DNA from: Naegleria gruberi
Lineage: Eukaryota
DNA: 64,000 bases
Strand: one strand, 5' to 3'
NCBI GenBank assembly: GCA_000004985.1
Contig: GG738886.1
Shown here: positions 39,926-63,205 of the stretch, piece by piece
Numbering within the stretch: position 1 is the stretch's first letter
Layout of the letters: each line of letters opens with the position of its first letter
The notes under the pieces: generated by a model
Told to the model about the DNA's origin: nothing
What the model saw: the letters and a program-made list of their open reading frames with translations, nothing else
Databases searched by the model: none
Position numbers and translations under genes: made by a program

Positions 39926-41892
39926 TTATTTCATTAGAGAATCAATGCATTCTTTGAGAACTAATTTGTGGATTGGCTTTGTGAGTAGTTGATCAAAGAG
40001 TGGTGATTTCTCTATCAATACATCTCCTGTCAACGCTACAACCTTAATATCTCCTTGATGTCTATTTCTAAGAATTTTGGTTGCTTCAACTCCATCTAGA
40101 ACTGGCATATTCTATAAAGAAATATATTATTTTCTTTTAATTTAAAAGAAACTTACCAAATCTGTAATAATAAGCTTGTGCCTTCCCTTATCAAATAGTT
40201 CAATTAATTCTTTTCCGTCATTGGCAGCATCTACAGAATAACCAAGACTTTCAATAAGTTTTGTAATGACTCTCCTGTTCACAGAATTGTCATCAGCAAT
40301 TAGAATTTCAGCTTTCGAGTTGCTTGCCTTATTTTGACAGCAAGTTGAAAAGAGACGAATATAATTTTCTTGAATGGCTAGTTGTCTCTTGATGGAAGGA
40401 TCAATTTCGTGTAAAGATTCGCTACTATTCTTACTTCTCTCTAATTTGCATTGTACAATTTCCAAAGGAAGAATTACAGTGAATTCTGCTCCACAATTTT
40501 CATCAGATTCCAATGTAATATCTCCTCTCATGGCTTGAACATTGTGTTTTACAGTTGAAAGTCCTAATCCACTCCTTTTTAAAGGATTAAAAAATGTTTA
40601 AGCTACATCTATACGTACCCAGGAATGATTGACTGATTCAAATTATGTAACTGTGCAAAAGGTTCAAATATTTTGGCTTGTTTTGATTTTGGAATGCCAA
40701 TTCCGTTATCTTTCACTTTGAAAATGATATCTCTTTCAATAACTCCATTCACCTGTCGTTCATCTCCTTGGACAAAGCATTCCAAATCGATGGAATCTCC
40801 AATTTTTGATGCCTTTACGCCATTGGTCATAAGATTTGATATTACTTGATGTATTCTAGTTTGATTAGCTCTCACAAAGAGGTCTTTCGCTTGTTCATCA
40901 ATTGAGACGTTCACATTGACTTGAAATTGTTTCGAATAACTCTTAATGATATTTCCCATCATTTTCACACAGTTATTCAAACTAAATATTTTGAAAAACT
41001 TGGTAGCCTCTGAAGATTTATCATCTGACTTCTTTTCATGTTCAATTTTCACAAGTGTCAGAACATCCTCAATAAGATTGAGTAAAATTCCATCCGAGGA
41101 GGCAATTGTCTCAACTAACTCTCTTTGATATTCTGTTAGATTTGTCTCTCTCAACAATTCAACACTTCCCAAACTACTCAAACAAGGAGATCTAAACTCA
41201 TGACTGATATGGCGAATAAAAACTTCCTTACTTGACAAGGCCATTTCTAACTCCTTTGCTGTTTGTTCCAATTTTGTTATTTTTGATTGGAGAGCTGAGG
41301 ATGTTGACAATACATAATAGCTCAATAAATAAATACACAAAGCAGTTGCCAAATTCTCGAATATTAACTCTATCGAATTCGAAAAGATCAAACTATGAAC
41401 TATTGTTCCACAATATAAGAAAAATGTTACAAAGAATGGAGCCAACGTATAATGCAATGAAGTCATCGTGTTTGATGACATGAGTATCAAAATATACATT
41501 GGAGAAAGGAGAGCCCGATTATCTGCCACCAAGAAGTACCTAAAACAAAACAAGAGCAATGAAACAGTCATTCTAACCTTTTCCTCTGCCTCTGTAGATC
41601 TCACAAGGCCCACTCCAAGCATGGAACGAATAAATTTTCCATTCACTATAACTCCAAATATAATACTACTCGTCATGATGATTAAATGTTGCCATCCCTT
41701 ACAAAATGAATAAGCAATCAGAAGGGCATACTCCATTATTAGTACTTTTAAAATTACGTTATCCTTCATAGGAAGCGTAAGTACATGTTTAAAGAAGGGT
41801 CTTAGTCTCGGATGTAAACTATCATATATTGCTTGATCCTCCAAATCCAAGGCAAATCCTCTCAAGGGATCCACTACTAATTTTCCCACCAT
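39926..41892 (-). CDS. Membrane-bound hybrid sensor histidine kinase (multi-TM N-terminus, HisKA, HATPase_c, REC), complement(join(39926..40111,40157..40574,40619..41892)).
   Basis: H-box IRHISHEFRSPCLSSL. N/G boxes NLMTNGVKAS and VKDNGIGIP. After the 44-nt intron, G2 SGLGLS. Receiver domain ILIADDNSVNRRV...LIITDL|NMPVLDGVEATKILRN...VVALTG...LTKP is split by a 45-nt intron gtaagt..tatag. Five to six N-terminal TM helices. Confidence 0.8.
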
Positions 41893-46502: not shown

Positions 46503-49500
46503 ATGATGATCAAAACGACAGAGTTGAGATCGATATTAGTATCCGCATTATTATTCTTCTTCTTGTTAATCATAGTATTTTGTGGATCGATATTTGGGTT
46601 GAGTGGATTTACTTTCGATCAGGATGCATACAACAAGATTTGGAATGATGAAACGGAAATTTGGTTTGGTCAATCGACAGCTCTTACAGGTCAAACTAAA
46701 GAGTGAGTAATCTTTTCTCCAATTATTATAATGATGTAAAGACTAGGATATCCAATGATGACAGGAGTTCAGGCAGCCTTTAAAGAAATCAATGAAAATT
46801 CTGGTGGAGTTTGGGGAGGTAAAAAACTGAGGTTAATTACATTGGATGATGGTTATGAGCCAGCTAGAACTGTAAATAATACGATTCAGCTCATTAATAA
46901 TAACACAATATTTGGATTGATTGGATATATGGGGACAGGTACTTCGCAAGCTGCATTTCCATATCTTACTGAATCAAAACTTCCATTTATTGGTGCATTC
47001 ACGGGAGGATTGTTTTTGAGAACACCTTTTGTTTCTAATATTGTGAATATTAGAGCTAGTTATCAAGACGAAACTGTAGCTATGGTAGAATATTTAGTTA
47101 CAGTAAAAATGGTGAGGAGAATTGCAATCTTTTATCAGAATGATGCATTCGGCATGTCAGGGGTTGATGGTTCTAGTTTGGCATTGACGGCTCTTGGAAT
47201 GAGTTTAGTTTCAAGAGGTTCTTATGAAAGAAATACTATTGTTGTCGCGAAGGCAGTTTCAGATATTGTTGCTGGAAATCCACAGGCAATTATCTGCATG
47301 TCAACATACAAACCAACATTGGAATTTATCAATACAGTCAAGAATAGGACAGATTTTGACCCAAACATTGTTTTCATGACTGGCTCTTTTATTGGTTCTA
47401 ATATTTTACCATACAGAGATAGTGTTGTCATTACTCAGGTATTACCTCCACCAACCAACACAAAATACCCAATTGTTCTAGCCTATCAGAGAGCTATGAA
47501 AGCATCCAATCCAAATTTCGTGCCTTCCTATGTGGAATTGGAAGGATACATTGCTGGAAAGATGGCAGCAAATATATTGACTCAAAGAGTTTCTGGAGAT
47601 TTGACACGCAGTAATTTTCTTCAACTTGTCTATTCCACTAGTACCTATATTATTGATAATCAAGTTATTGGACCGTACAAGCAATGTAGCTCTTCTAGAT
47701 CCTTGCATTACTTTTTTGATGATCCTCAAAATCAAGATGCCTTTCTCTATCCAGTTTTACAACCACGTACAAGATTGATACCACGAAAAATTGAATCAAC
47801 ATTTGTTGCGCCTTGCTCTTGTAATCAAGGTTTGAGATCTATTTGGAAAACTTCTCAAAATGCTGATAGTTCATTTAGTGAAATTTCAGATCCAATGGTT
47901 TGGGATACTACTAGTACTACTAATTATACCTGCTTCTATGATCCAACAAAGACTCTCCCACCAATTGTATTTGGACACATATCATCTGGAGATAAGTATG
48001 ATGAAGATTTTCTAGTTGGAGTGTTATTAGCATTCAACGAAAAAAACAATCAAAAAGGTATACGTGGAAGCGTGCTAAGAATTCTCACAAAAACCCCATC
48101 CAATAGTTCTGCTTCTGCCCTTATTGATACAGTTAATTTGTTGAAAAATGATTTTAATGTACTTGGAATTTTGGGTGGATTTTTACCAAGTTCTAGTTAT
48201 GCTCAATTCGTAGATCAGTTTAAAACTCAATTACCTAACACATTGTTTCTATCGCCTTCCACATCATATGACTCTCCAACATTGAGAAGTGTATTTTCTC
48301 CAAATATTATTCATATTGGATTATCTATTCGTGAAAAGTTGGCCACCTTTTTCGATTTTGAAATGAATGCAAATGGGCATTCCAGATTTTCTGTAGTATA
48401 TGGTAAATCCACTGAAGGGGCAGCAGATTGTAAAGAGTTCAAGAACCAATTGAGCCAATTTGGATTAACTGTTGAGAGTGAATATGAACATTCATCATCT
48501 GTTACAGATTACAAGTTAGTCACACAAGCACTTGTTTCAAATGATGGTAACCCTCAATCTGTTGTTGTTCTACTTCCTGAAAATATATCCTCATTCTCTT
48601 ATTTGAGTACTGTAATCAAGGGTATTGTGAATATTGGAAAGAGAGATGACTTGTCAATATTCTTTTTGTACTTTAAATATACATCTTGGGTGGCAGATGT
48701 TTTTAACTTGATGGCTAGTCTTAATACCAAAAATAATGTATATCTTATTCAAAGATATCCTCATGTTGTGGACACTCAATTACCTTTAGTTGCAGCTTAC
48801 AATAATTTGTTCAGCAAGTATTATTCTTCTTCTGTTTCTACAACTGGATCTTTAGAAGGTTTTTTGGCTGCAAGCTTTTTAATTGAAGTTTTGGAGAATA
48901 TTTCTCCATCTGCAGATATTAATGGACCAAGTACAATTTTCACAATTTACCAAACGCAACAATTTTTGAAATATTCCATTCCATTTGGTAATTTCATTAG
49001 TAATTCTTGCAATTTGGGCATGAGAACAACCTATTTGTACAAGCTGGACGGATCGACCTTTACAAATGTCAAAATTCAATCATTTGACAAGACTAAATGT
49101 GGTCTTTCAGAAGATATTTTTTCCTCTGAAAGTTCCATTGAAAAACAACTTTTATTTGGTAGATTACTACCCGTGGAAGATGCTTCACTTCCATATGATG
49201 ATTTTAGTGTTGGTTTGAATGCATTATTCACATCTTATAACACTAAGGGAACACTGGATACTGCAACTTTGCACTTAAAAACTCTGTACTATTCAAGCAG
49301 AGAGGAAATGACCAAGAAGGCAGAGGAGCTCATTCTAAAATACAAAATTTTTGGATTTTTAGGATCTAGACTAGTCTATGATGTTACTGAACTCAAGGCT
49401 ATAATGGAAAATTACAAGATACCAATTATAGGTCCACTTTCTTCTCAGTTAGCTTTGAGAGAACCTTACTCAAGGTTTGTGGTCAATTTAAGACCTAGCA

Positions 49501-51176
49501 TTGTTGAGGAATCTGTAGTTTTGACAAGATATCTGACCTCTGTTATTACCTCAAGAAAACCAACAGTTCTCATTCTCAGCGGATCATCTTACTATTGGCA
49601 GCAAAATAGTAATAATGTTGTTTCATTTTATTCGAAGAGTATTGAAGGAGTTTCGATTTCATCAACTAGTATTTCGTCAGTCTCTTCCACTTCTGGTAGA
49701 GCTGTAGAAGGTTCTAAGCCAGACTTGGTTCTTTTGTTGGCCTCTCCAACAGAAGTTTCACAATTTCTAACCAACTATCCCACTTTTTCCTCTCTAATTG
49801 GAATACCTTCAGAAATTTCATCTATTTCTAGTTTCAAAACACTCTTAAATGATATACCTTCTTCAGTAATAATTAGTCCTCAATTTTTAGAAAGGTATGA
49901 TAAGGCTTCATCAACAAACTTTATGGCCAGAGATTTCTTGATAGACATGGCCAAATACTCAACCTCATCAAATACCTCCACACTAATGTATGAAGCTTAT
50001 GCAGTGGGTTATATGACAACAACTGTTCTCAAGTTCATGTCCCAAGCCAATATGGATTATAGCAGAGAAAAATTTGTTTCCACATTTTTCGAGAGGTCTG
50101 TATTTGAATTAGGAAATAATGAATTTGGACCGTATGGCGATGAGTGCTCCATACAATCCACTTTTGTAGTGAAAGGCTCTTGTGAATCTGTTTCTGTTTG
50201 TAATTGTAGTCAAGGCGTGAGAGCTCTTCAAATCAATTCTCTAACCTCATCCTCGGATAGTATTTTATATGAAATGAATTTCAAAACATGTGGATTGCAA
50301 GCTATTGAACCACTTCTTTCAGATGGAGCCATTGCTGGTGTTGCTGTTGGGGGTACACTAGCTTTTTTAGGTACTCTATTTGTTATACTAGTACTGATTT
50401 TCTGTGCAAGAAATAGATCCTCAGTTAAGAATGCTCCCAAGTCAGGAAATATCACTTGTGCATTTACGGATGTTCAAAGCAGTACAAAACTTTGGCAAAA
50501 TAATGAAAAGGCTATGAGAAATGCATTAGAAATTCATGACAAGATTATGAGGAAAAATCTTGAATTATTCAGAGGTTATGAGGTCAAGACAAATGGTGAT
50601 AGTTTCTTTGTTGCCTTTAAGGATCCATTTGATGCTGTTTTATGGTCTTTAACAGTTCAATTAGATTTATTGAATGCGAATTGGCCTTCAGAATTATATC
50701 ACGAATATGATTGCAGACAGGAATGGGATGAACGAATCAAGAAACCTTATTGGAGTGGATTGAGAGTGAGAATTGGACTTCATTACGGAAAGGGAGATTG
50801 CAAATGGGATAAAACCATGAAACGCTTCGACTATTTTGGAACAGTTGTAAACAAGTCAGCACGTATTGAAGCATTAGCACATGGAGGACAAGTTTTGATC
50901 AGTGAAGAATTATTGGAAGTAACTAAAGACCTCTTCCAAGATGTTAAGAAAATAGCCAGTTGTGATGAATTTCCAGCCTATCAAACCACTACAAAAGAGG
51001 AGAAGAAACTAGCTGTGGACGACAAAACCTCAACAACAGCTAGTCTCAAACATCAAAATTCTCTCTCTAGTGTATTGGGTAGGAGAAGAACTAAAATTCT
51101 AATTGATAGAACATTCACAGCCGCTGAGTTGGGAGTTTATCCATTGAAGGGACTATCTGAATCGAGCAGACTTTTC
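46503..51176 (+). CDS. Receptor-type class III adenylate/guanylate cyclase: signal peptide, three tandem periplasmic-binding-protein type I (LivK/ANF-receptor-like) modules, one TM, cyclase domain. Model join(46503..46702,46742..>51176); the 3' end is lost in the N gap.
   Basis: Signal-like exon 1 MMIKTTELRSILVSALLFFFLLIIVF. A 39-nt intron gtgagt..gtaaag gives ...ALTGQTKELGYPMMTGVQAAFKEINENSGGVWGGKKL, the LivK N-terminal signature. TM AIAGVAVGGTLAFLGTLFVILVLIFC. Cyclase motifs FTDVQSSTKLW...GYEVKTNGDSFFVAFKD...LRVRIGLHYG...DYFGTVVNKSARIEALAHGGQVLISEE. The ORF then runs into the 50-N gap at 51177. Confidence 0.8.
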
Positions 51177-51226
51177 NNNNNNNNNNNNNNNNNNNNNNNN
51201 NNNNNNNNNNNNNNNNNNNNNNNNNN
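51177..51226. other. Assembly gap (50 N).
   Basis: Run of n. Confidence 0.95.
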
Positions 51227-51230
51227 TTAG

Positions 51231-52400
51231 TATTACAGAACTTTGACAACCTTCAAACTCAATCAAATTAGCAAATAATCTATTTATATAAATTGAAACC
51301 CTGCTATGTGATGTATACATCAATGTTACAAATAATTGTTTGTTGGATATATTTCTCTATGTAATATATTGAGTTTGATTGAATACTGTCAATAACAACA
51401 CTATTAAACTGTTAAAAGGGACCTACATTTTATTTGATAATATCATTTATCTATGTATTATATCGACAAATACCTGGTATCATGATTATATTTTCTATAT
51501 TTTCAATTTGGGAAATGTCGCAATGTCAGTACTTAATTGAAATATTGCCATAATACCAATTATTGATTATATATCATGAAACTGATATTATAGACTTTAT
51601 TTGATGTATATATGAATATATGATTGAAATATTTCAATTTTGACTTTTCTTAATGACATGGGTAGTTCACTAAGGTAGTCACTTTGCCATATGACAACTA
51701 TCTAAGATGATATTGAAATCATTCTAAAATTGATATTATGAGAGTATTTGATGATTACAACATGATGAAAATGAAAAGGAATTAATTATTACAATATTTG
51801 ACATGTAAGAATGTTACCTTTGATCAATTGGATAAGTAGCTTGACAGACATTCCAATTATATAGATATTGATTTCTATTACTCAGATACTTTACAAATAT
51901 CATTTATAAGAGTAGTGGTATATTCTGTTTTTTTATACTTCTTGATATTGACTTGTCATAATATCATGAGTAATTGCTTACATGGTTAAATGACATGTAT
52001 ACTGAATGATGTCCAAATGATATGAAATTGATAGGAACCTCTTTATATGATGTTTATAACATATTGTATCAATTTGGTATTGAATCTCATTGATCTTAGG
52101 GAACTCTCCTATTAAATTTTGTAAAATCAATATTTACCTTCCTATGGCACCATTTCTAATTATTATGATATGAAATTGAATTCTACATCATTATATATCA
52201 TCTAAATCATTATGGTAAAGTTTCAATAGTGGTTCTTTTTCAAGATTTCATCCTTTTCATCATAGTTGACTATGTTTGATTGAGTTAAGAAATCTGTAAA
52301 CATGAAAGTTAAAATAAATTTGATATTCGATGTTTACTCATCAAGTGGAACATTTTCATATTAGGATTCAATATGTTTTGATGAGAAACTCAAAAGTTAT
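51231..52400. repeat. AT-rich non-coding block of diverged short repeats. The terminal roughly 300 bp (52100-52400) is copy 1 of a subtelomeric repeat unit.
   Basis: No ORF. Recurring words (tgatattgaaat, atatcatga, atgacatg). 52128-52400 aligns in inverse orientation with 62480-62780, and 52296-52400 is identical to 63206-63310. Confidence 0.6.
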
Positions 52401-52788
52401 GGGGTTTGGGGTTGGGTTTGGGTTTGGGTTTGGGTTTGGGTTTGGGTTTGGGTTTGGGTTTGGGTTTGGGTTTGGGTTTGGGTTTGGGTTTGGGTTTGGG
52501 TTTGGGTTTGGGTTTGGGTTTGGGTTTGGGTTTGGGTTTGGGTTTGGGTTTGGGTTTGGGTTTGGGTTTGGGTTTGGGTTTGGGTTTGGGTTTGGGTTTG
52601 GGTTTGGGTTTGGGTTTGGGTTTGGGTTTGGGTTTGGGTTTGGGTTTGGGTTGGGTTTGGGTTTGGGTTTGGGTTTGGGTTTGGGTTTGGGTTTGGGTCT
52701 GGGTTTGGGTTTGGGTTTGGGTTTGGGTTTGGAATTGGGTTTGGGTTTGGGTTTGGGTTTGGGTTTGGGTTTGGGTTTGGGTTTGGGT
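52401..52788 (+). repeat. Telomere-like hexamer array (TTTGGG)n, G-rich on the + strand, internal to the scaffold.
   Basis: About 64 tandem units of gggttt, with a few variants (ttggg, gggtct, ggaattggg). It runs directly into the N gap. Confidence 0.9.
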
Positions 52789-55700
52789 NNNNNNNNNNNN
52801 NNNNNNNNNNNNNNNNNNNNNNNNNNNNNNNNNNNNNNNNNNNNNNNNNNNNNNNNNNNNNNNNNNNNNNNNNNNNNNNNNNNNNNNNNNNNNNNNNNNN
52901 NNNNNNNNNNNNNNNNNNNNNNNNNNNNNNNNNNNNNNNNNNNNNNNNNNNNNNNNNNNNNNNNNNNNNNNNNNNNNNNNNNNNNNNNNNNNNNNNNNNN
53001 NNNNNNNNNNNNNNNNNNNNNNNNNNNNNNNNNNNNNNNNNNNNNNNNNNNNNNNNNNNNNNNNNNNNNNNNNNNNNNNNNNNNNNNNNNNNNNNNNNNN
53101 NNNNNNNNNNNNNNNNNNNNNNNNNNNNNNNNNNNNNNNNNNNNNNNNNNNNNNNNNNNNNNNNNNNNNNNNNNNNNNNNNNNNNNNNNNNNNNNNNNNN
53201 NNNNNNNNNNNNNNNNNNNNNNNNNNNNNNNNNNNNNNNNNNNNNNNNNNNNNNNNNNNNNNNNNNNNNNNNNNNNNNNNNNNNNNNNNNNNNNNNNNNN
53301 NNNNNNNNNNNNNNNNNNNNNNNNNNNNNNNNNNNNNNNNNNNNNNNNNNNNNNNNNNNNNNNNNNNNNNNNNNNNNNNNNNNNNNNNNNNNNNNNNNNN
53401 NNNNNNNNNNNNNNNNNNNNNNNNNNNNNNNNNNNNNNNNNNNNNNNNNNNNNNNNNNNNNNNNNNNNNNNNNNNNNNNNNNNNNNNNNNNNNNNNNNNN
53501 NNNNNNNNNNNNNNNNNNNNNNNNNNNNNNNNNNNNNNNNNNNNNNNNNNNNNNNNNNNNNNNNNNNNNNNNNNNNNNNNNNNNNNNNNNNNNNNNNNNN
53601 NNNNNNNNNNNNNNNNNNNNNNNNNNNNNNNNNNNNNNNNNNNNNNNNNNNNNNNNNNNNNNNNNNNNNNNNNNNNNNNNNNNNNNNNNNNNNNNNNNNN
53701 NNNNNNNNNNNNNNNNNNNNNNNNNNNNNNNNNNNNNNNNNNNNNNNNNNNNNNNNNNNNNNNNNNNNNNNNNNNNNNNNNNNNNNNNNNNNNNNNNNNN
53801 NNNNNNNNNNNNNNNNNNNNNNNNNNNNNNNNNNNNNNNNNNNNNNNNNNNNNNNNNNNNNNNNNNNNNNNNNNNNNNNNNNNNNNNNNNNNNNNNNNNN
53901 NNNNNNNNNNNNNNNNNNNNNNNNNNNNNNNNNNNNNNNNNNNNNNNNNNNNNNNNNNNNNNNNNNNNNNNNNNNNNNNNNNNNNNNNNNNNNNNNNNNN
54001 NNNNNNNNNNNNNNNNNNNNNNNNNNNNNNNNNNNNNNNNNNNNNNNNNNNNNNNNNNNNNNNNNNNNNNNNNNNNNNNNNNNNNNNNNNNNNNNNNNNN
54101 NNNNNNNNNNNNNNNNNNNNNNNNNNNNNNNNNNNNNNNNNNNNNNNNNNNNNNNNNNNNNNNNNNNNNNNNNNNNNNNNNNNNNNNNNNNNNNNNNNNN
54201 NNNNNNNNNNNNNNNNNNNNNNNNNNNNNNNNNNNNNNNNNNNNNNNNNNNNNNNNNNNNNNNNNNNNNNNNNNNNNNNNNNNNNNNNNNNNNNNNNNNN
54301 NNNNNNNNNNNNNNNNNNNNNNNNNNNNNNNNNNNNNNNNNNNNNNNNNNNNNNNNNNNNNNNNNNNNNNNNNNNNNNNNNNNNNNNNNNNNNNNNNNNN
54401 NNNNNNNNNNNNNNNNNNNNNNNNNNNNNNNNNNNNNNNNNNNNNNNNNNNNNNNNNNNNNNNNNNNNNNNNNNNNNNNNNNNNNNNNNNNNNNNNNNNN
54501 NNNNNNNNNNNNNNNNNNNNNNNNNNNNNNNNNNNNNNNNNNNNNNNNNNNNNNNNNNNNNNNNNNNNNNNNNNNNNNNNNNNNNNNNNNNNNNNNNNNN
54601 NNNNNNNNNNNNNNNNNNNNNNNNNNNNNNNNNNNNNNNNNNNNNNNNNNNNNNNNNNNNNNNNNNNNNNNNNNNNNNNNNNNNNNNNNNNNNNNNNNNN
54701 NNNNNNNNNNNNNNNNNNNNNNNNNNNNNNNNNNNNNNNNNNNNNNNNNNNNNNNNNNNNNNNNNNNNNNNNNNNNNNNNNNNNNNNNNNNNNNNNNNNN
54801 NNNNNNNNNNNNNNNNNNNNNNNNNNNNNNNNNNNNNNNNNNNNNNNNNNNNNNNNNNNNNNNNNNNNNNNNNNNNNNNNNNNNNNNNNNNNNNNNNNNN
54901 NNNNNNNNNNNNNNNNNNNNNNNNNNNNNNNNNNNNNNNNNNNNNNNNNNNNNNNNNNNNNNNNNNNNNNNNNNNNNNNNNNNNNNNNNNNNNNNNNNNN
55001 NNNNNNNNNNNNNNNNNNNNNNNNNNNNNNNNNNNNNNNNNNNNNNNNNNNNNNNNNNNNNNNNNNNNNNNNNNNNNNNNNNNNNNNNNNNNNNNNNNNN
55101 NNNNNNNNNNNNNNNNNNNNNNNNNNNNNNNNNNNNNNNNNNNNNNNNNNNNNNNNNNNNNNNNNNNNNNNNNNNNNNNNNNNNNNNNNNNNNNNNNNNN
55201 NNNNNNNNNNNNNNNNNNNNNNNNNNNNNNNNNNNNNNNNNNNNNNNNNNNNNNNNNNNNNNNNNNNNNNNNNNNNNNNNNNNNNNNNNNNNNNNNNNNN
55301 NNNNNNNNNNNNNNNNNNNNNNNNNNNNNNNNNNNNNNNNNNNNNNNNNNNNNNNNNNNNNNNNNNNNNNNNNNNNNNNNNNNNNNNNNNNNNNNNNNNN
55401 NNNNNNNNNNNNNNNNNNNNNNNNNNNNNNNNNNNNNNNNNNNNNNNNNNNNNNNNNNNNNNNNNNNNNNNNNNNNNNNNNNNNNNNNNNNNNNNNNNNN
55501 NNNNNNNNNNNNNNNNNNNNNNNNNNNNNNNNNNNNNNNNNNNNNNNNNNNNNNNNNNNNNNNNNNNNNNNNNNNNNNNNNNNNNNNNNNNNNNNNNNNN
55601 NNNNNNNNNNNNNNNNNNNNNNNNNNNNNNNNNNNNNNNNNNNNNNNNNNNNNNNNNNNNNNNNNNNNNNNNNNNNNNNNNNNNNNNNNNNNNNNNNNNN

Positions 55701-58700
55701 NNNNNNNNNNNNNNNNNNNNNNNNNNNNNNNNNNNNNNNNNNNNNNNNNNNNNNNNNNNNNNNNNNNNNNNNNNNNNNNNNNNNNNNNNNNNNNNNNNNN
55801 NNNNNNNNNNNNNNNNNNNNNNNNNNNNNNNNNNNNNNNNNNNNNNNNNNNNNNNNNNNNNNNNNNNNNNNNNNNNNNNNNNNNNNNNNNNNNNNNNNNN
55901 NNNNNNNNNNNNNNNNNNNNNNNNNNNNNNNNNNNNNNNNNNNNNNNNNNNNNNNNNNNNNNNNNNNNNNNNNNNNNNNNNNNNNNNNNNNNNNNNNNNN
56001 NNNNNNNNNNNNNNNNNNNNNNNNNNNNNNNNNNNNNNNNNNNNNNNNNNNNNNNNNNNNNNNNNNNNNNNNNNNNNNNNNNNNNNNNNNNNNNNNNNNN
56101 NNNNNNNNNNNNNNNNNNNNNNNNNNNNNNNNNNNNNNNNNNNNNNNNNNNNNNNNNNNNNNNNNNNNNNNNNNNNNNNNNNNNNNNNNNNNNNNNNNNN
56201 NNNNNNNNNNNNNNNNNNNNNNNNNNNNNNNNNNNNNNNNNNNNNNNNNNNNNNNNNNNNNNNNNNNNNNNNNNNNNNNNNNNNNNNNNNNNNNNNNNNN
56301 NNNNNNNNNNNNNNNNNNNNNNNNNNNNNNNNNNNNNNNNNNNNNNNNNNNNNNNNNNNNNNNNNNNNNNNNNNNNNNNNNNNNNNNNNNNNNNNNNNNN
56401 NNNNNNNNNNNNNNNNNNNNNNNNNNNNNNNNNNNNNNNNNNNNNNNNNNNNNNNNNNNNNNNNNNNNNNNNNNNNNNNNNNNNNNNNNNNNNNNNNNNN
56501 NNNNNNNNNNNNNNNNNNNNNNNNNNNNNNNNNNNNNNNNNNNNNNNNNNNNNNNNNNNNNNNNNNNNNNNNNNNNNNNNNNNNNNNNNNNNNNNNNNNN
56601 NNNNNNNNNNNNNNNNNNNNNNNNNNNNNNNNNNNNNNNNNNNNNNNNNNNNNNNNNNNNNNNNNNNNNNNNNNNNNNNNNNNNNNNNNNNNNNNNNNNN
56701 NNNNNNNNNNNNNNNNNNNNNNNNNNNNNNNNNNNNNNNNNNNNNNNNNNNNNNNNNNNNNNNNNNNNNNNNNNNNNNNNNNNNNNNNNNNNNNNNNNNN
56801 NNNNNNNNNNNNNNNNNNNNNNNNNNNNNNNNNNNNNNNNNNNNNNNNNNNNNNNNNNNNNNNNNNNNNNNNNNNNNNNNNNNNNNNNNNNNNNNNNNNN
56901 NNNNNNNNNNNNNNNNNNNNNNNNNNNNNNNNNNNNNNNNNNNNNNNNNNNNNNNNNNNNNNNNNNNNNNNNNNNNNNNNNNNNNNNNNNNNNNNNNNNN
57001 NNNNNNNNNNNNNNNNNNNNNNNNNNNNNNNNNNNNNNNNNNNNNNNNNNNNNNNNNNNNNNNNNNNNNNNNNNNNNNNNNNNNNNNNNNNNNNNNNNNN
57101 NNNNNNNNNNNNNNNNNNNNNNNNNNNNNNNNNNNNNNNNNNNNNNNNNNNNNNNNNNNNNNNNNNNNNNNNNNNNNNNNNNNNNNNNNNNNNNNNNNNN
57201 NNNNNNNNNNNNNNNNNNNNNNNNNNNNNNNNNNNNNNNNNNNNNNNNNNNNNNNNNNNNNNNNNNNNNNNNNNNNNNNNNNNNNNNNNNNNNNNNNNNN
57301 NNNNNNNNNNNNNNNNNNNNNNNNNNNNNNNNNNNNNNNNNNNNNNNNNNNNNNNNNNNNNNNNNNNNNNNNNNNNNNNNNNNNNNNNNNNNNNNNNNNN
57401 NNNNNNNNNNNNNNNNNNNNNNNNNNNNNNNNNNNNNNNNNNNNNNNNNNNNNNNNNNNNNNNNNNNNNNNNNNNNNNNNNNNNNNNNNNNNNNNNNNNN
57501 NNNNNNNNNNNNNNNNNNNNNNNNNNNNNNNNNNNNNNNNNNNNNNNNNNNNNNNNNNNNNNNNNNNNNNNNNNNNNNNNNNNNNNNNNNNNNNNNNNNN
57601 NNNNNNNNNNNNNNNNNNNNNNNNNNNNNNNNNNNNNNNNNNNNNNNNNNNNNNNNNNNNNNNNNNNNNNNNNNNNNNNNNNNNNNNNNNNNNNNNNNNN
57701 NNNNNNNNNNNNNNNNNNNNNNNNNNNNNNNNNNNNNNNNNNNNNNNNNNNNNNNNNNNNNNNNNNNNNNNNNNNNNNNNNNNNNNNNNNNNNNNNNNNN
57801 NNNNNNNNNNNNNNNNNNNNNNNNNNNNNNNNNNNNNNNNNNNNNNNNNNNNNNNNNNNNNNNNNNNNNNNNNNNNNNNNNNNNNNNNNNNNNNNNNNNN
57901 NNNNNNNNNNNNNNNNNNNNNNNNNNNNNNNNNNNNNNNNNNNNNNNNNNNNNNNNNNNNNNNNNNNNNNNNNNNNNNNNNNNNNNNNNNNNNNNNNNNN
58001 NNNNNNNNNNNNNNNNNNNNNNNNNNNNNNNNNNNNNNNNNNNNNNNNNNNNNNNNNNNNNNNNNNNNNNNNNNNNNNNNNNNNNNNNNNNNNNNNNNNN
58101 NNNNNNNNNNNNNNNNNNNNNNNNNNNNNNNNNNNNNNNNNNNNNNNNNNNNNNNNNNNNNNNNNNNNNNNNNNNNNNNNNNNNNNNNNNNNNNNNNNNN
58201 NNNNNNNNNNNNNNNNNNNNNNNNNNNNNNNNNNNNNNNNNNNNNNNNNNNNNNNNNNNNNNNNNNNNNNNNNNNNNNNNNNNNNNNNNNNNNNNNNNNN
58301 NNNNNNNNNNNNNNNNNNNNNNNNNNNNNNNNNNNNNNNNNNNNNNNNNNNNNNNNNNNNNNNNNNNNNNNNNNNNNNNNNNNNNNNNNNNNNNNNNNNN
58401 NNNNNNNNNNNNNNNNNNNNNNNNNNNNNNNNNNNNNNNNNNNNNNNNNNNNNNNNNNNNNNNNNNNNNNNNNNNNNNNNNNNNNNNNNNNNNNNNNNNN
58501 NNNNNNNNNNNNNNNNNNNNNNNNNNNNNNNNNNNNNNNNNNNNNNNNNNNNNNNNNNNNNNNNNNNNNNNNNNNNNNNNNNNNNNNNNNNNNNNNNNNN
58601 NNNNNNNNNNNNNNNNNNNNNNNNNNNNNNNNNNNNNNNNNNNNNNNNNNNNNNNNNNNNNNNNNNNNNNNNNNNNNNNNNNNNNNNNNNNNNNNNNNNN

Positions 58701-61073
58701 NNNNNNNNNNNNNNNNNNNNNNNNNNNNNNNNNNNNNNNNNNNNNNNNNNNNNNNNNNNNNNNNNNNNNNNNNNNNNNNNNNNNNNNNNNNNNNNNNNNN
58801 NNNNNNNNNNNNNNNNNNNNNNNNNNNNNNNNNNNNNNNNNNNNNNNNNNNNNNNNNNNNNNNNNNNNNNNNNNNNNNNNNNNNNNNNNNNNNNNNNNNN
58901 NNNNNNNNNNNNNNNNNNNNNNNNNNNNNNNNNNNNNNNNNNNNNNNNNNNNNNNNNNNNNNNNNNNNNNNNNNNNNNNNNNNNNNNNNNNNNNNNNNNN
59001 NNNNNNNNNNNNNNNNNNNNNNNNNNNNNNNNNNNNNNNNNNNNNNNNNNNNNNNNNNNNNNNNNNNNNNNNNNNNNNNNNNNNNNNNNNNNNNNNNNNN
59101 NNNNNNNNNNNNNNNNNNNNNNNNNNNNNNNNNNNNNNNNNNNNNNNNNNNNNNNNNNNNNNNNNNNNNNNNNNNNNNNNNNNNNNNNNNNNNNNNNNNN
59201 NNNNNNNNNNNNNNNNNNNNNNNNNNNNNNNNNNNNNNNNNNNNNNNNNNNNNNNNNNNNNNNNNNNNNNNNNNNNNNNNNNNNNNNNNNNNNNNNNNNN
59301 NNNNNNNNNNNNNNNNNNNNNNNNNNNNNNNNNNNNNNNNNNNNNNNNNNNNNNNNNNNNNNNNNNNNNNNNNNNNNNNNNNNNNNNNNNNNNNNNNNNN
59401 NNNNNNNNNNNNNNNNNNNNNNNNNNNNNNNNNNNNNNNNNNNNNNNNNNNNNNNNNNNNNNNNNNNNNNNNNNNNNNNNNNNNNNNNNNNNNNNNNNNN
59501 NNNNNNNNNNNNNNNNNNNNNNNNNNNNNNNNNNNNNNNNNNNNNNNNNNNNNNNNNNNNNNNNNNNNNNNNNNNNNNNNNNNNNNNNNNNNNNNNNNNN
59601 NNNNNNNNNNNNNNNNNNNNNNNNNNNNNNNNNNNNNNNNNNNNNNNNNNNNNNNNNNNNNNNNNNNNNNNNNNNNNNNNNNNNNNNNNNNNNNNNNNNN
59701 NNNNNNNNNNNNNNNNNNNNNNNNNNNNNNNNNNNNNNNNNNNNNNNNNNNNNNNNNNNNNNNNNNNNNNNNNNNNNNNNNNNNNNNNNNNNNNNNNNNN
59801 NNNNNNNNNNNNNNNNNNNNNNNNNNNNNNNNNNNNNNNNNNNNNNNNNNNNNNNNNNNNNNNNNNNNNNNNNNNNNNNNNNNNNNNNNNNNNNNNNNNN
59901 NNNNNNNNNNNNNNNNNNNNNNNNNNNNNNNNNNNNNNNNNNNNNNNNNNNNNNNNNNNNNNNNNNNNNNNNNNNNNNNNNNNNNNNNNNNNNNNNNNNN
60001 NNNNNNNNNNNNNNNNNNNNNNNNNNNNNNNNNNNNNNNNNNNNNNNNNNNNNNNNNNNNNNNNNNNNNNNNNNNNNNNNNNNNNNNNNNNNNNNNNNNN
60101 NNNNNNNNNNNNNNNNNNNNNNNNNNNNNNNNNNNNNNNNNNNNNNNNNNNNNNNNNNNNNNNNNNNNNNNNNNNNNNNNNNNNNNNNNNNNNNNNNNNN
60201 NNNNNNNNNNNNNNNNNNNNNNNNNNNNNNNNNNNNNNNNNNNNNNNNNNNNNNNNNNNNNNNNNNNNNNNNNNNNNNNNNNNNNNNNNNNNNNNNNNNN
60301 NNNNNNNNNNNNNNNNNNNNNNNNNNNNNNNNNNNNNNNNNNNNNNNNNNNNNNNNNNNNNNNNNNNNNNNNNNNNNNNNNNNNNNNNNNNNNNNNNNNN
60401 NNNNNNNNNNNNNNNNNNNNNNNNNNNNNNNNNNNNNNNNNNNNNNNNNNNNNNNNNNNNNNNNNNNNNNNNNNNNNNNNNNNNNNNNNNNNNNNNNNNN
60501 NNNNNNNNNNNNNNNNNNNNNNNNNNNNNNNNNNNNNNNNNNNNNNNNNNNNNNNNNNNNNNNNNNNNNNNNNNNNNNNNNNNNNNNNNNNNNNNNNNNN
60601 NNNNNNNNNNNNNNNNNNNNNNNNNNNNNNNNNNNNNNNNNNNNNNNNNNNNNNNNNNNNNNNNNNNNNNNNNNNNNNNNNNNNNNNNNNNNNNNNNNNN
60701 NNNNNNNNNNNNNNNNNNNNNNNNNNNNNNNNNNNNNNNNNNNNNNNNNNNNNNNNNNNNNNNNNNNNNNNNNNNNNNNNNNNNNNNNNNNNNNNNNNNN
60801 NNNNNNNNNNNNNNNNNNNNNNNNNNNNNNNNNNNNNNNNNNNNNNNNNNNNNNNNNNNNNNNNNNNNNNNNNNNNNNNNNNNNNNNNNNNNNNNNNNNN
60901 NNNNNNNNNNNNNNNNNNNNNNNNNNNNNNNNNNNNNNNNNNNNNNNNNNNNNNNNNNNNNNNNNNNNNNNNNNNNNNNNNNNNNNNNNNNNNNNNNNNN
61001 NNNNNNNNNNNNNNNNNNNNNNNNNNNNNNNNNNNNNNNNNNNNNNNNNNNNNNNNNNNNNNNNNNNNNNNNN
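52789..61073. other. Assembly gap (8,285 N).
   Basis: Run of n. The two giant ORFs of 2,972 and 2,901 aa across it are artefacts of translating N. Confidence 0.95.
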
Positions 61074-61236
61074 GTTTGGGTATTTTGTTGGTTTTTTTAG
61101 TAAAGTTTTAAAAAAAGTATATAGTTCTTATCTAGTTATCGAGTTGTGGTGTAAATGTGTTGTTTTTAAGCTATTCGAAAGTAGTAACGATTTCGATATT
61201 CCGTTACTTTGCGTCACTTTGCGGACGGACTTATAT

Positions 61237-62214
61237 TCAATAAATTAATTTCATAGCTACTAGATTGGGATTAGTAGATTCATCAAACTTGTCTTCAACA
61301 AGAATTATTCTTAACAAGTATTCCATCAAAATTCTAGAACTAATTCTCTTTTGTTTGTCAATTTGTAGACAAGCTATTATAGCCCATTTTAGGTCTGAAT
61401 TGGGTAATTTCTTATTGAAAGCTTTCAAGATGAATTTATCAATTTCTGGTTGAGTCTTGAAATCTCTATGGAAATCAGTTGTCTTATCTTCAGATAAAAG
61501 TCTGTAAATGATTACACCAAGACACCAAATATCCAAAGATGATCCAACTTCATTAGTGGGAGGATTGTTATGTAATCTGCCAATATTTGTACAAGTAATT
61601 CTACTACTATCCACAACTTCGCACATTTCAAAATCTGCTAATCTAATTTTCACATTACCAGTTTTTTCATCATATTCTTCAACAAATATATTATCCAATT
61701 CAATATCTCTATGCACTACTTTCGAATTTTGATCTGCATGTAATGCTCGGAGAGCTTTAGAAAGCTGGTAAGTCAATAATGCAATTGTGTTTTCGGATAA
61801 ATTTGTCTTTTTAGAGAGTTGTTGCAAATCTCCAATTTCATAAAACGGCATCAATGTATACACATAACTGTCTCCTTCATAAAATCCCAAAATTTCAACA
61901 ATATGATGATGATTCAATAAAGATACAACCCGAGCAGCATTCCTCTCCCTCTCCAAAACTTCGTATTGTTCTGGTTCCTCCTCTTCATCAACCCTCCTTA
62001 CCACCCGAACAACAATATTGCGAATATTATTGTTATTATTCTTCTCGTAGTCAGAAACATTTTGATTAGCCTCATCCCCAACAACTTCCGAGAGACATTG
62101 TAGTACCGTTGCTCTTTCGCTATTGCTTTTGAGTATTTTTATTTGTGAATATTTACAGCCAGTTAATTGTTCCAATTCCACGAAAAAGTAGGTCTTGTGG
62201 AGTCTGCTTGACAT
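61237..62214 (-). CDS. Divergent protein kinase-like protein (CAMK-like catalytic loop, atypical DFE motif); possibly a pseudokinase. Subtelomeric.
   Basis: HRDIELDN catalytic loop, ADFEMCE in place of DFG, SLDIWCLGVIIYRLL (subdomain IX), no glycine-rich loop. ATG at 62214. 325 aa in a single exon. Confidence 0.55.
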   Translation of the reverse strand: MSSRLHKTYFFVELEQLTGCKYSQIKILKSNSERATVLQCLSEVVGDEANQNVSDYEKNNNNNIRNIVVRVVRRVDEEEEPEQYEVLERERNAARVVSLLNHHHIVEILGFYEGDSYVYTLMPFYEIGDLQQLSKKTNLSENTIALLTYQLSKALRALHADQNSKVVHRDIELDNIFVEEYDEKTGNVKIRLADFEMCEVVDSSRITCTNIGRLHNNPPTNEVGSSLDIWCLGVIIYRLLSEDKTTDFHRDFKTQPEIDKFILKAFNKKLPNSDLKWAIIACLQIDKQKRISSRILMEYLLRIILVEDKFDESTNPNLVAMKLIY

Positions 62215-63155: not shown

Positions 63156-63205
63156 NNNNNNNNNNNNNNNNNNNNNNNNNNNNNNNNNNNNNNNNNNNNN
63201 NNNNN
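63156..63205. other. Assembly gap (50 N).
   Basis: Run of n. Confidence 0.95.

Follow-up and report, generated by a model that had tools for sequence, protein, structure and literature searches.

What kind of receptor is encoded by a gene of Naegleria gruberi that runs into an assembly gap, and can its substrate be predicted when its 3′ end is missing? The gene lies on contig GG738886.1 (assembly GCA_000004985.1), on the plus strand of the 64,000-nucleotide stretch analyzed here (the window, to which all positions refer); it opens with an ATG at 46503 and encodes at least 1545 amino acids before the gap. An original prediction, made from the letters of the sequence, had proposed a signal sequence, three periplasmic-binding-protein type I (PBP-I) modules, one transmembrane helix and a class III cyclase domain. 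Each of these elements was recovered by Pfam, hhalign, AlphaFold2, Foldseek or hydropathy, and translation and the coordinates of the N runs agreed with the strand, the start at 46503 and the interruption by a 50-N gap. We conclude, with a probability of about 0.82, that the gene specifies a membrane receptor-type adenylate cyclase, belonging to a family of cyclases with PBP ectodomains that spans Discoba. Within a known class of receptors, it is the heterolobosean variant with three modules. The parts of the protein are these:

Residues 10-32 (nt 46530-46598, plus strand): predicted signal sequence or signal anchor (hydropathy, translation)
Residues 45-470 (46635..47951, intron included, plus strand): module 1, PBP type I, Peripla_BP_6 (Pfam, PDB match, AlphaFold2, Foldseek)
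Residues 471-862 (47952..49127, plus strand): module 2, divergent PBP type I (Pfam, hhalign, AlphaFold2, family hidden Markov model [HMM])
Residues 863-1258 (49128..50315, plus strand): module 3, membrane-proximal PBP type I (hhalign, AlphaFold2, Foldseek)
Residues 1263-1289 (50328..50408, plus strand): single transmembrane helix, AIAGVAVGGTLAFLGTLFVILVLIFCA (Kyte-Doolittle scan)
Residues 1303-1545 (50448..51176, plus strand): class III cyclase catalytic domain (Pfam, PDB alignments)

The ectodomain is large, as originally predicted, and at about 1230 amino acids exceeds the ~1,180 then estimated. It consists of three units of ~390 to 425 residues, each with a similar opening strand (IWFGQS at residue 53, IVFGHIS at 475 and LLFGRLL at 870) and a similar closing cysteine motif. 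The closing motif reads ..GPY..C382..C425SC427NQGLR..C464 in module 1, ..SC823NLGMR..C853 in module 2, where there are two cysteines only, and ..GPYGDEC1202..C1220NC1222SQGVR..C1250 in module 3. Its general form, GP[YF]G..C...CxCNQGxR...[TK]CG, is family specific and near-invariant in homologues; modules 1, 2 and 3 carry four, two and four of the cysteines, at residues 382-464, 823-853 and 1202-1250 (approximately 47685-47933, 49008-49100 and 50145-50291 in the window). In the structural model, the motif forms a small beta-hairpin, presumably stabilized by disulfides.

Profile searches recognized the modules to different degrees. Module 1 matched Peripla_BP_6 with an E value of 3.2e-40 and ANF_receptor with 2.3e-10; for module 2, the values were 4e-9 (37 bits; cut-off, 31.7) and 4e-4, and module 3 matched Peripla_BP_6 weakly (E 0.0045). 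The family module HMM, when run on the whole protein, found three matches, at residues 49-462, 469-856 (91.6 bits) and 864-1261. The modules also resemble each other. BLAST aligned modules 1 and 2 in register (E 9e-12) and modules 1 and 3 less strongly (E 1e-4), and hhalign, using profiles from three orthologues, aligned every pair end to end over 317 to 352 columns: modules 1 and 2 at 98.9% (E 3e-17), modules 1 and 3 at 98.7% (E 4e-16) and modules 2 and 3 at 97.6% (E 3e-12).

Structure prediction agreed with the sequence comparisons. An AlphaFold2 model of the ectodomain, covering exon 2 only and based on a nine-sequence alignment, gave modules 1 and 2 a predicted local distance difference test score (pLDDT) of ~80-90, with alternating beta and alpha elements in module 2, and gave module 3 a score of <50. 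This low value is due to the shallow alignment and not to a missing fold; modeled alone from a 20-sequence alignment, module 3 reached a mean pLDDT of 85.7 and a predicted template-modeling (TM) score of 0.87. In Foldseek searches, the best match of both module 1 (E 1.2e-20, target TM score 0.78, 29% identity) and module 3 (E 1.6e-19, TM scores 0.73/0.78) was 4KV7, and both models had TM scores of 0.73-0.80 to LivJ/LivK-type proteins; AmiC, UrtA and the flytraps of AMPA receptors, mGluR and GABA-B came lower in the lists. By sequence as well, module 1 matched 4KV7, a Rhodopirellula "probable Leu/Ile/Val-binding protein," with an E value of 6e-45. Thus, three tandem homologous LivJ/LivK-like PBP-I modules are real and not low complexity. 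As in the LivJ/LivK-family proteins 4KV7 (Rhodopirellula baltica) and 3LOP (Ralstonia), each module has the full bilobed fold; in N. gruberi, however, the fold occurs in tandem triplicate, is joined to a membrane enzyme where the bacterial proteins serve an ATP-binding cassette transporter, and carries in each copy an added C-terminal cysteine hairpin.

The protein has only two hydrophobic segments in a Kyte-Doolittle scan, at residues ~5-40 and 1263-1291. The first of these, as a signal sequence or anchor, is predicted to place the ectodomain outside the cell; the second leads, across a juxtamembrane linker of 13 residues, into the cyclase. The short spacing that had been proposed is therefore correct, but its length is 13 and not the ~25 amino acids first given. 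No kinase-homology domain was detected by Pfam, again as predicted, and merely these 13 residues separate the transmembrane helix from the catalytic domain.

The catalytic domain starts at residue 1303 (NITCAFTDV) and matched Pfam Guanylate_cyc (PF00211) with an E value of 2.1e-25 and 89.8 bits, compared to a cut-off of 21.9. Its best matches in the PDB were two Trypanosoma brucei enzymes, GRESAG4.3 (1FX4, E 2.5e-30) and GRESAG4.1 (1FX2, E 6.3e-29). A mycobacterial cyclase followed at 1e-11, about 19 orders of magnitude behind. Alignment to 1FX4/1FX2 located the following residues, all on the plus strand:

50469-50471: metal Asp1310 (FTD)
50586-50588: adenine-specifying Lys1349 (EVKTNGDS)
50598-50600: metal Asp1353 (GDS)
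50769-50771: Arg1410 (LRVRIG)
50829-50831: adenine-specifying Asp1430 (RFDYFG)
50850-50852: Asn1437 (VVNKSAR)
50862-50864: Arg1441 (VVNKSAR)

The two metal aspartates, the transition-state Asn and Arg and the phosphate-binding Arg are thus all present. Among class III cyclases, a Lys/Asp pair is the one that specifies adenine, and from Lys1349 and Asp1430 the protein is therefore predicted to be an adenylate cyclase, using ATP. The original prediction had expected the specificity residues to fall partly within the missing C terminus; in fact, both lie upstream of the gap, and the substrate (cyclic AMP as product) can be predicted without closing it. In other respects that prediction held up well: the searches it proposed returned Peripla_BP_6, ANF_receptor and Guanylate_cyc matches, and the findings it had named as fatal did not materialize, since PBP matches and the Asp1310/Asp1353 pair are present and the modules are not low complexity. 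Two insertions stand out in the domain. One, before WxGLRVR, is at the trypanosomal site (alpha3-beta4) and is ~16-18 residues shorter than in the trypanosomal enzymes; the other, ahead of the last two strands, is a low-complexity, heterolobosean-specific insert of ~55 amino acids (residues 1466-1520).

A review describes the receptor cyclases of trypanosomes as having two Venus flytrap (VFT) domains, one transmembrane helix and a catalytic domain activated by dimerization, and it calls cyclases of this two-VFT receptor type "a hallmark of trypanosomatids" (PMC6027212). The N. gruberi protein shares with ESAG4, GRESAG4.1 and GRESAG4.3 (1FX2, 1FX4) a VFT ectodomain, a single transmembrane helix, a very short linker and one class III domain, as well as the absence of a kinase-homology domain, the Lys/Asp pair and the insertion site before WxGLRVR. 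It differs in having three flytraps where trypanosomes have two (PMC6027212), in a catalytic identity of 36%, in the shorter insertion and the extra ~55-residue insert, and in its host, a free-living heterolobosean amoeboflagellate in which the gene carries an intron. The host is thus not a kinetoplastid, as had been surmised from the sequence. Heterolobosea and Euglenozoa both belong to Discoba. Given this shared membership, the resemblance to trypanosomes is less odd than first thought.

To place the protein among its relatives, module 3, the transmembrane helix and the cyclase domain together were used as the query of an exhaustive HMMER search against 1.84 billion representative proteins. 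There were 16,618 matches, mostly cyclase-only and many with two to five cyclase domains; many of the top-scoring relatives of the catalytic domain, 68 of the 150 matches listed (P0015-P0040 and others), are long proteins with two to five cyclase domains and no PBP module. Among the matches listed, both module and cyclase are spanned in N. lovaniensis P0014 and P0022, the N. gruberi paralogue P0027 (XP_002673284), N. fowleri P0168, Willaertia magna P0003 and P0051, Acrasis kona P0031, P0056, P0059, P0065 and P0070, Euglena gracilis P0091, P0095 and P0112, E. longa P0089 and Rhabdomonas costata P0084, and also in many metagenomic proteins. Orthologues occur in N. lovaniensis (P0014, 54% identity over module 3 and the cyclase), a Logan assembly (44%) and Willaertia magna (30% over 97% of the length).

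Module number, counted in each relative with the family HMM, follows the host group. Three modules are present in heterolobosean proteins of full length, among them P0027, P0168 of N. fowleri and P0031, P0059 and P0065 of Acrasis kona; proteins of ~1200 amino acids from E. gracilis (P0091/P0095), E. longa (P0089) and metagenomes (the kinetoplastid-like P0099, P0100, P0114 and P0127) have two, and the Rhabdomonas protein has four. An HMM of module 3 scored the third modules of Naegleria, Willaertia and other three-module proteins at 115-585 bits, versus 10-80 for the remaining modules. The third modules are thus mutually orthologous, and the three-module layout therefore predates the split of Naegleria and Willaertia. 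The two-module euglenid and metagenomic cyclases share with the N. gruberi protein the module type with its cysteine motif, the transmembrane helix, the linker and the catalytic motifs, and with its heterolobosean homologues a post-catalytic R-x-F-P-x-L-R sequence. The GRESAG4.1 catalytic fragment of T. brucei (the 1FX2 sequence, taken from the PDB alignment) shows 46-51% identity to the two-module proteins and 36% to the N. gruberi protein; therefore, the trypanosome enzymes group with the two-module proteins, and the heterolobosean ones are more distant cousins.

How might such a receptor work? Since a single chain carries all the catalytic residues, of both active-site halves, one would expect a homodimer with two symmetric active sites, as in the trypanosomal enzymes. 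By analogy with class III cyclases and with what has been proposed for the trypanosomal receptor cyclases (PMC6027212), the hold of the ectodomains on the two chains would set the activity of the cyclase. We imagine that a small solute, in one or more of the flytrap clefts, would cause closure and thereby reorient the dimer, and that the 13-residue linker would pass this change straight to the catalytic dimer, with neither a kinase-homology nor a coiled-coil relay. Module 1 is the best candidate for the sensor, because it is the most conserved module (63% identical to P0002 and 43% identical to Willaertia, where modules 2 and 3 reach 37-41% and 26-28%) and more like free bacterial binding proteins than the other two, which may act as spacers or dimer interfaces. 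The sequence does not reveal a ligand, and the amino acid sensing originally proposed does not follow from the likeness to 4KV7. In a by-eye comparison of module 1 with E. coli LivJ, equivalents of LivJ Glu226 and Tyr202 were not apparent.

Several observations weigh against this overall reading of the gene. The T. brucei cyclases are activated 5- to 100-fold by acid pH, hypotonic stress or trypsin, and none of them has a known ligand (PMC6027212). The match of module 3 to PF25493 ("Adenylate cyclase, PBP-like domain," Peripla_BP_A-cyclase) has an E value of 8e-6 but, at 25.5 bits, stays under the cut-off of 27.2, and it covers profile positions 277-331 only, that is, the shared C-terminal cysteine motif. 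The membrane-proximal module of the two-module cyclases is, in contrast, strongly PF25493-like, with up to 151 bits. Modules 1 and 2 do not match this profile, and an equivalent partial match also occurs in seven-transmembrane (7TM) proteins. The module 3 HMM scores the N-terminal module of P0114 above the membrane-proximal one (48 versus 13 bits), and these scores give no sign of a positional orthology between module 3 and the membrane-proximal module in Euglenozoa. A profile search for trypanosomatid receptor cyclases gave only metagenomic and EukProt proteins and bacterial cyclases, the comparison with T. brucei being one of catalytic fragments. Finally, both intron and signal sequence are predicted, and at ~23 residues the hydrophobic core of the N terminus is longer than one would expect of a signal peptide that is cleaved.

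The first of these points bears on the alternative that fares best, which we nonetheless regard as unlikely: that the ectodomain is not a ligand sensor and that its modules, at least 2 and 3, are degenerate scaffolds or dimerization spacers on a cyclase switched by membrane or physical stress (pH, osmolarity or proteolysis), as reported for the T. brucei enzymes. The lower conservation of modules 2 and 3 toward Willaertia, their weak Peripla_BP_6 scores and the loss of two of the four motif cysteines from module 2 would fit such a decay. However, all three modules retain a complete, confidently predicted bilobed fold, and the likeness of module 1 to the free bacterial protein 4KV7, by sequence and by Foldseek, together with the conservation of the aligned motifs, suggests that binding has been retained. 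This tandem cassette is, moreover, also fused to the domains of G-protein-coupled receptors (GPCRs) of class C, which are ligand receptors.

These fusions came out of the same comparisons and are of interest in themselves. Flytrap cassettes joined to the class C GPCR domain 7tm_3 occur in the protist proteins P0004-P0009; in P0004-P0006, the tandem flytraps are colinear with modules 1 and 2, at 25-29% identity over ~810-940 residues, whereas P0007-P0009 have two modules that each match module 1. One of them, P0005, is encoded on a Logan contig of run SRR10663366 (locus L001 3001-7482). These proteins resemble the cyclase in their tandem modules and identical terminal cysteine motif and differ in their output, seven helices as opposed to a single helix and a cyclase. 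P0011 has one module of this kind, followed by two protein-kinase domains.

That PBP modules of this type have been fused to several different outputs could also be taken to mean that heteroloboseans made their own PBP-cyclase fusion and that the likeness to the euglenozoan and trypanosomal receptor cyclases is convergent. In line with this, the module 3 HMM is weak on the membrane-proximal module of the two-module proteins, the PF25493 match is below its cut-off, and module 1 is nearer to a planctomycete protein (4KV7) than expected for an ancient eukaryotic domain. We consider convergence improbable. The two groups share a series of derived features: the GP-x-G..C...CxCNxG motif, which in both ends the module right before the transmembrane helix; a short linker with APK or APx; the catalytic motifs FTD[IV]..ST.LW and YEVKT.GDSF; the insertion before WxGLRVR; and, after the catalytic domain, R-x-[FY]-P-x-L-R. 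The best catalytic match of solved structure is trypanosomal, and both host groups lie in Discoba.

Very improbable is a receptor guanylate cyclase of the metazoan natriuretic peptide receptor (NPR) type, a reading that the ANF_receptor matches of modules 1 and 2 (weak, at about 2e-10 and 4e-4) and the database label "Guanylate cyclase domain-containing protein" on relatives would suggest. The general logic of NPR-A/B is indeed similar, with a PBP-type ectodomain, one transmembrane helix and a class III cyclase dimer. Yet NPR-A/B have one module, a kinase-homology domain, a coiled-coil linker and a Glu/Cys pair for GTP, none of which the N. gruberi protein has; its 13-residue linker holds neither of the two relay elements and its specificity pair is Lys1349/Asp1430. 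Peripla_BP_6 scores far above ANF_receptor, and 3ET6, the sole guanylate cyclase among the PDB matches, reached an E value of 1e-3, compared to 2.5e-30 for GRESAG4.3. The preference of the original prediction for the GRESAG4 type over the NPR type thus stands.

Could the gene be broken or misassembled? Its structure is as follows:

46503..46702, plus strand: exon 1, 200 nt (66 codons plus 2 nt; translation and hydropathy)
46703..46741, plus strand: predicted intron, 39 nt, GT-AG (GTGAGT...AAAG), with in-frame stops
46742..51176, plus strand: exon 2, 1478 codons with no stop, running into the 50-N gap
51177..51226, no strand: assembly gap of 50 N, probably a placeholder length (N-run coordinates)

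Exon 1 encodes MMIKTTELR, then the ~23 hydrophobic residues, then IWFGQSTALTGQTK, which forms module 1's first strand. This stretch is colinear with the N termini of P0027, the paralogue in N. gruberi, and of P0168 (N. fowleri) and P0003 (Willaertia). Unspliced, the reading from exon 1 meets a TGA at 46704-46706, and 46703-46741 is the sole GT-AG choice that preserves the frame. The resulting junction, ..LTGQTKE/LGYPMMTG.. (at greater length, ..LTGQTKE/LGYPMMTGVQAAFKEIN..), aligns ungapped with the homologues, which read ..LTGLSKKLGTEMRDG..; across the same junction, the paralogue P0027 reads ..LTGLSKKLGTEMRDGILAAFEEVN.., and P0168 and P0003 also align without gaps. A pseudogene or an assembly artifact, with a disruption inside the gap or an exon 1 foreign to the gene, is highly unlikely: the 3′ end is missing, the public model differs at both ends and the predicted intron is unusually short, but 1478 codons run uninterrupted in an AT-rich genome, every catalytic residue is kept and, from signal sequence to last strand, the protein lines up colinearly with homologues of full length.

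What the gap hides can be judged from the homologues. In the C-terminal alignment, the N. gruberi sequence stops at ..ELGVYPLKGLSESSRLF, so that the last beta-strand lacks its final two residues. The N. lovaniensis orthologue continues ..RVFEIKCAEIAMRQYPPLRV.. for ~45 more residues and Willaertia ..RLFQIKSREMMKRTYPPLRI.. for ~56 more; in homologues generally, ..RLF or RVF is followed by QI/EI..R.YPPLR.. and a tail of about 50-70 residues. The R-x-F-P-x-L-R motif is likewise present in the Euglena and two-module metagenomic proteins, and a post-catalytic R-x-[FY]-P-[PA]-L-R is common to heterolobosean, euglenid and metagenomic receptor cyclases (P0014, P0003, P0022, P0091 and P0114). By this comparison, the gap removes the end of the last strand (two residues), the R-x-[FY]-P-x-L-R motif, a tail of ~40-60 residues and the stop codon, but no catalytic residue; ahead of it, the catalytic domain is essentially complete. 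With ~40 codons or more absent, the true gap is probably longer than 50 nt. A TAG at 51228-51230 was considered as the true stop and rejected. It is in frame only if the gap measures exactly 50 nt, so 51230 is merely the mechanical end of the open reading frame (ORF); after the gap, each of the three frames meets a stop within 1-15 codons.

The protein is not new to the databases. It is 100% identical to the NCBI/UniProt "predicted protein [Naegleria gruberi]," P0001, of 1444 amino acids; because this protein and its precomputed Pfam domains are already public, neither the gene nor its class is new. The public gene model is, however, wrong at both ends, truncated at 46503-46757 and 51070-51176. 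P0001 begins at an internal Met (MTGVQAAF, nt 46758), without exon 1, and as a result both the signal sequence and module 1's first strand are absent from it. Its C terminus, ..SSVLVDYV, has no counterpart in the present reading or in homologues and looks like an invented splice that steps over the gap.

The window is AT-rich, with a GC content of about 33-34%, and the gene model matched one locus in it by tblastn, with no paralogue found elsewhere in the window by that search. MAD1, an M1 aminopeptidase, a histidine kinase and a Ser/Thr kinase are encoded by neighboring ORFs, all of them ordinary for a eukaryote. The histidine kinase ORF, a fragment with HisKA and HATPase_c, is at 40612-41892 on the minus strand, ~4.6 kb upstream of the cyclase gene and opposite to it; the Ser/Thr kinase ORF is at 61240-62214, also on the minus strand. 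There are three N runs, at 51177-51226 (50 N), 52789-61073 (8285 N) and 63156-63205 (50 N), and two giants in the ORF list, 52330-61248 and 52406-61111 (plus strand; 2972 and 2901 amino acids), are artifacts of the 8285-N scaffold gap.

The large phylogenetic study of receptor cyclases covers trypanosomatids and Bodo only (PMC7719234), a comparative euglenozoan paper does not mention cyclases, and a Naegleria pangenome paper counts at least 81 cyclases (PMC9928731). In the searchable literature on Naegleria and receptor-type or PBP cyclases, the architecture is not described, and genome papers only count cyclases. So far as we found, then, the three-module heterolobosean form and the spread of the family across Heterolobosea and euglenids are undescribed, as is the tandem cassette common to class C-type 7TM proteins and receptor kinases. 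Tentatively, and at somewhat less than even odds, we suggest that PBP-flytrap receptor cyclases date at least to the ancestor of Heterolobosea and Euglenozoa; that the flytraps are a portable cassette, joined to at least three outputs (cyclase, class C-type 7TM and kinase); that the three-module form could integrate more than one solute; and that module 1, being near to free bacterial binding proteins, may offer an entry to the ligands.

In trypanosomes, receptor cyclases matter for evasion of host immunity, social motility and transmission by tsetse (PMC6027212, PMC7719234). The same receptor design in free-living heteroloboseans and in euglenids would move its origin deeper into Discoba. It would also provide nonparasitic, experimentally accessible homologues, in which the outer module is still near bacterial binding proteins that can be characterized.

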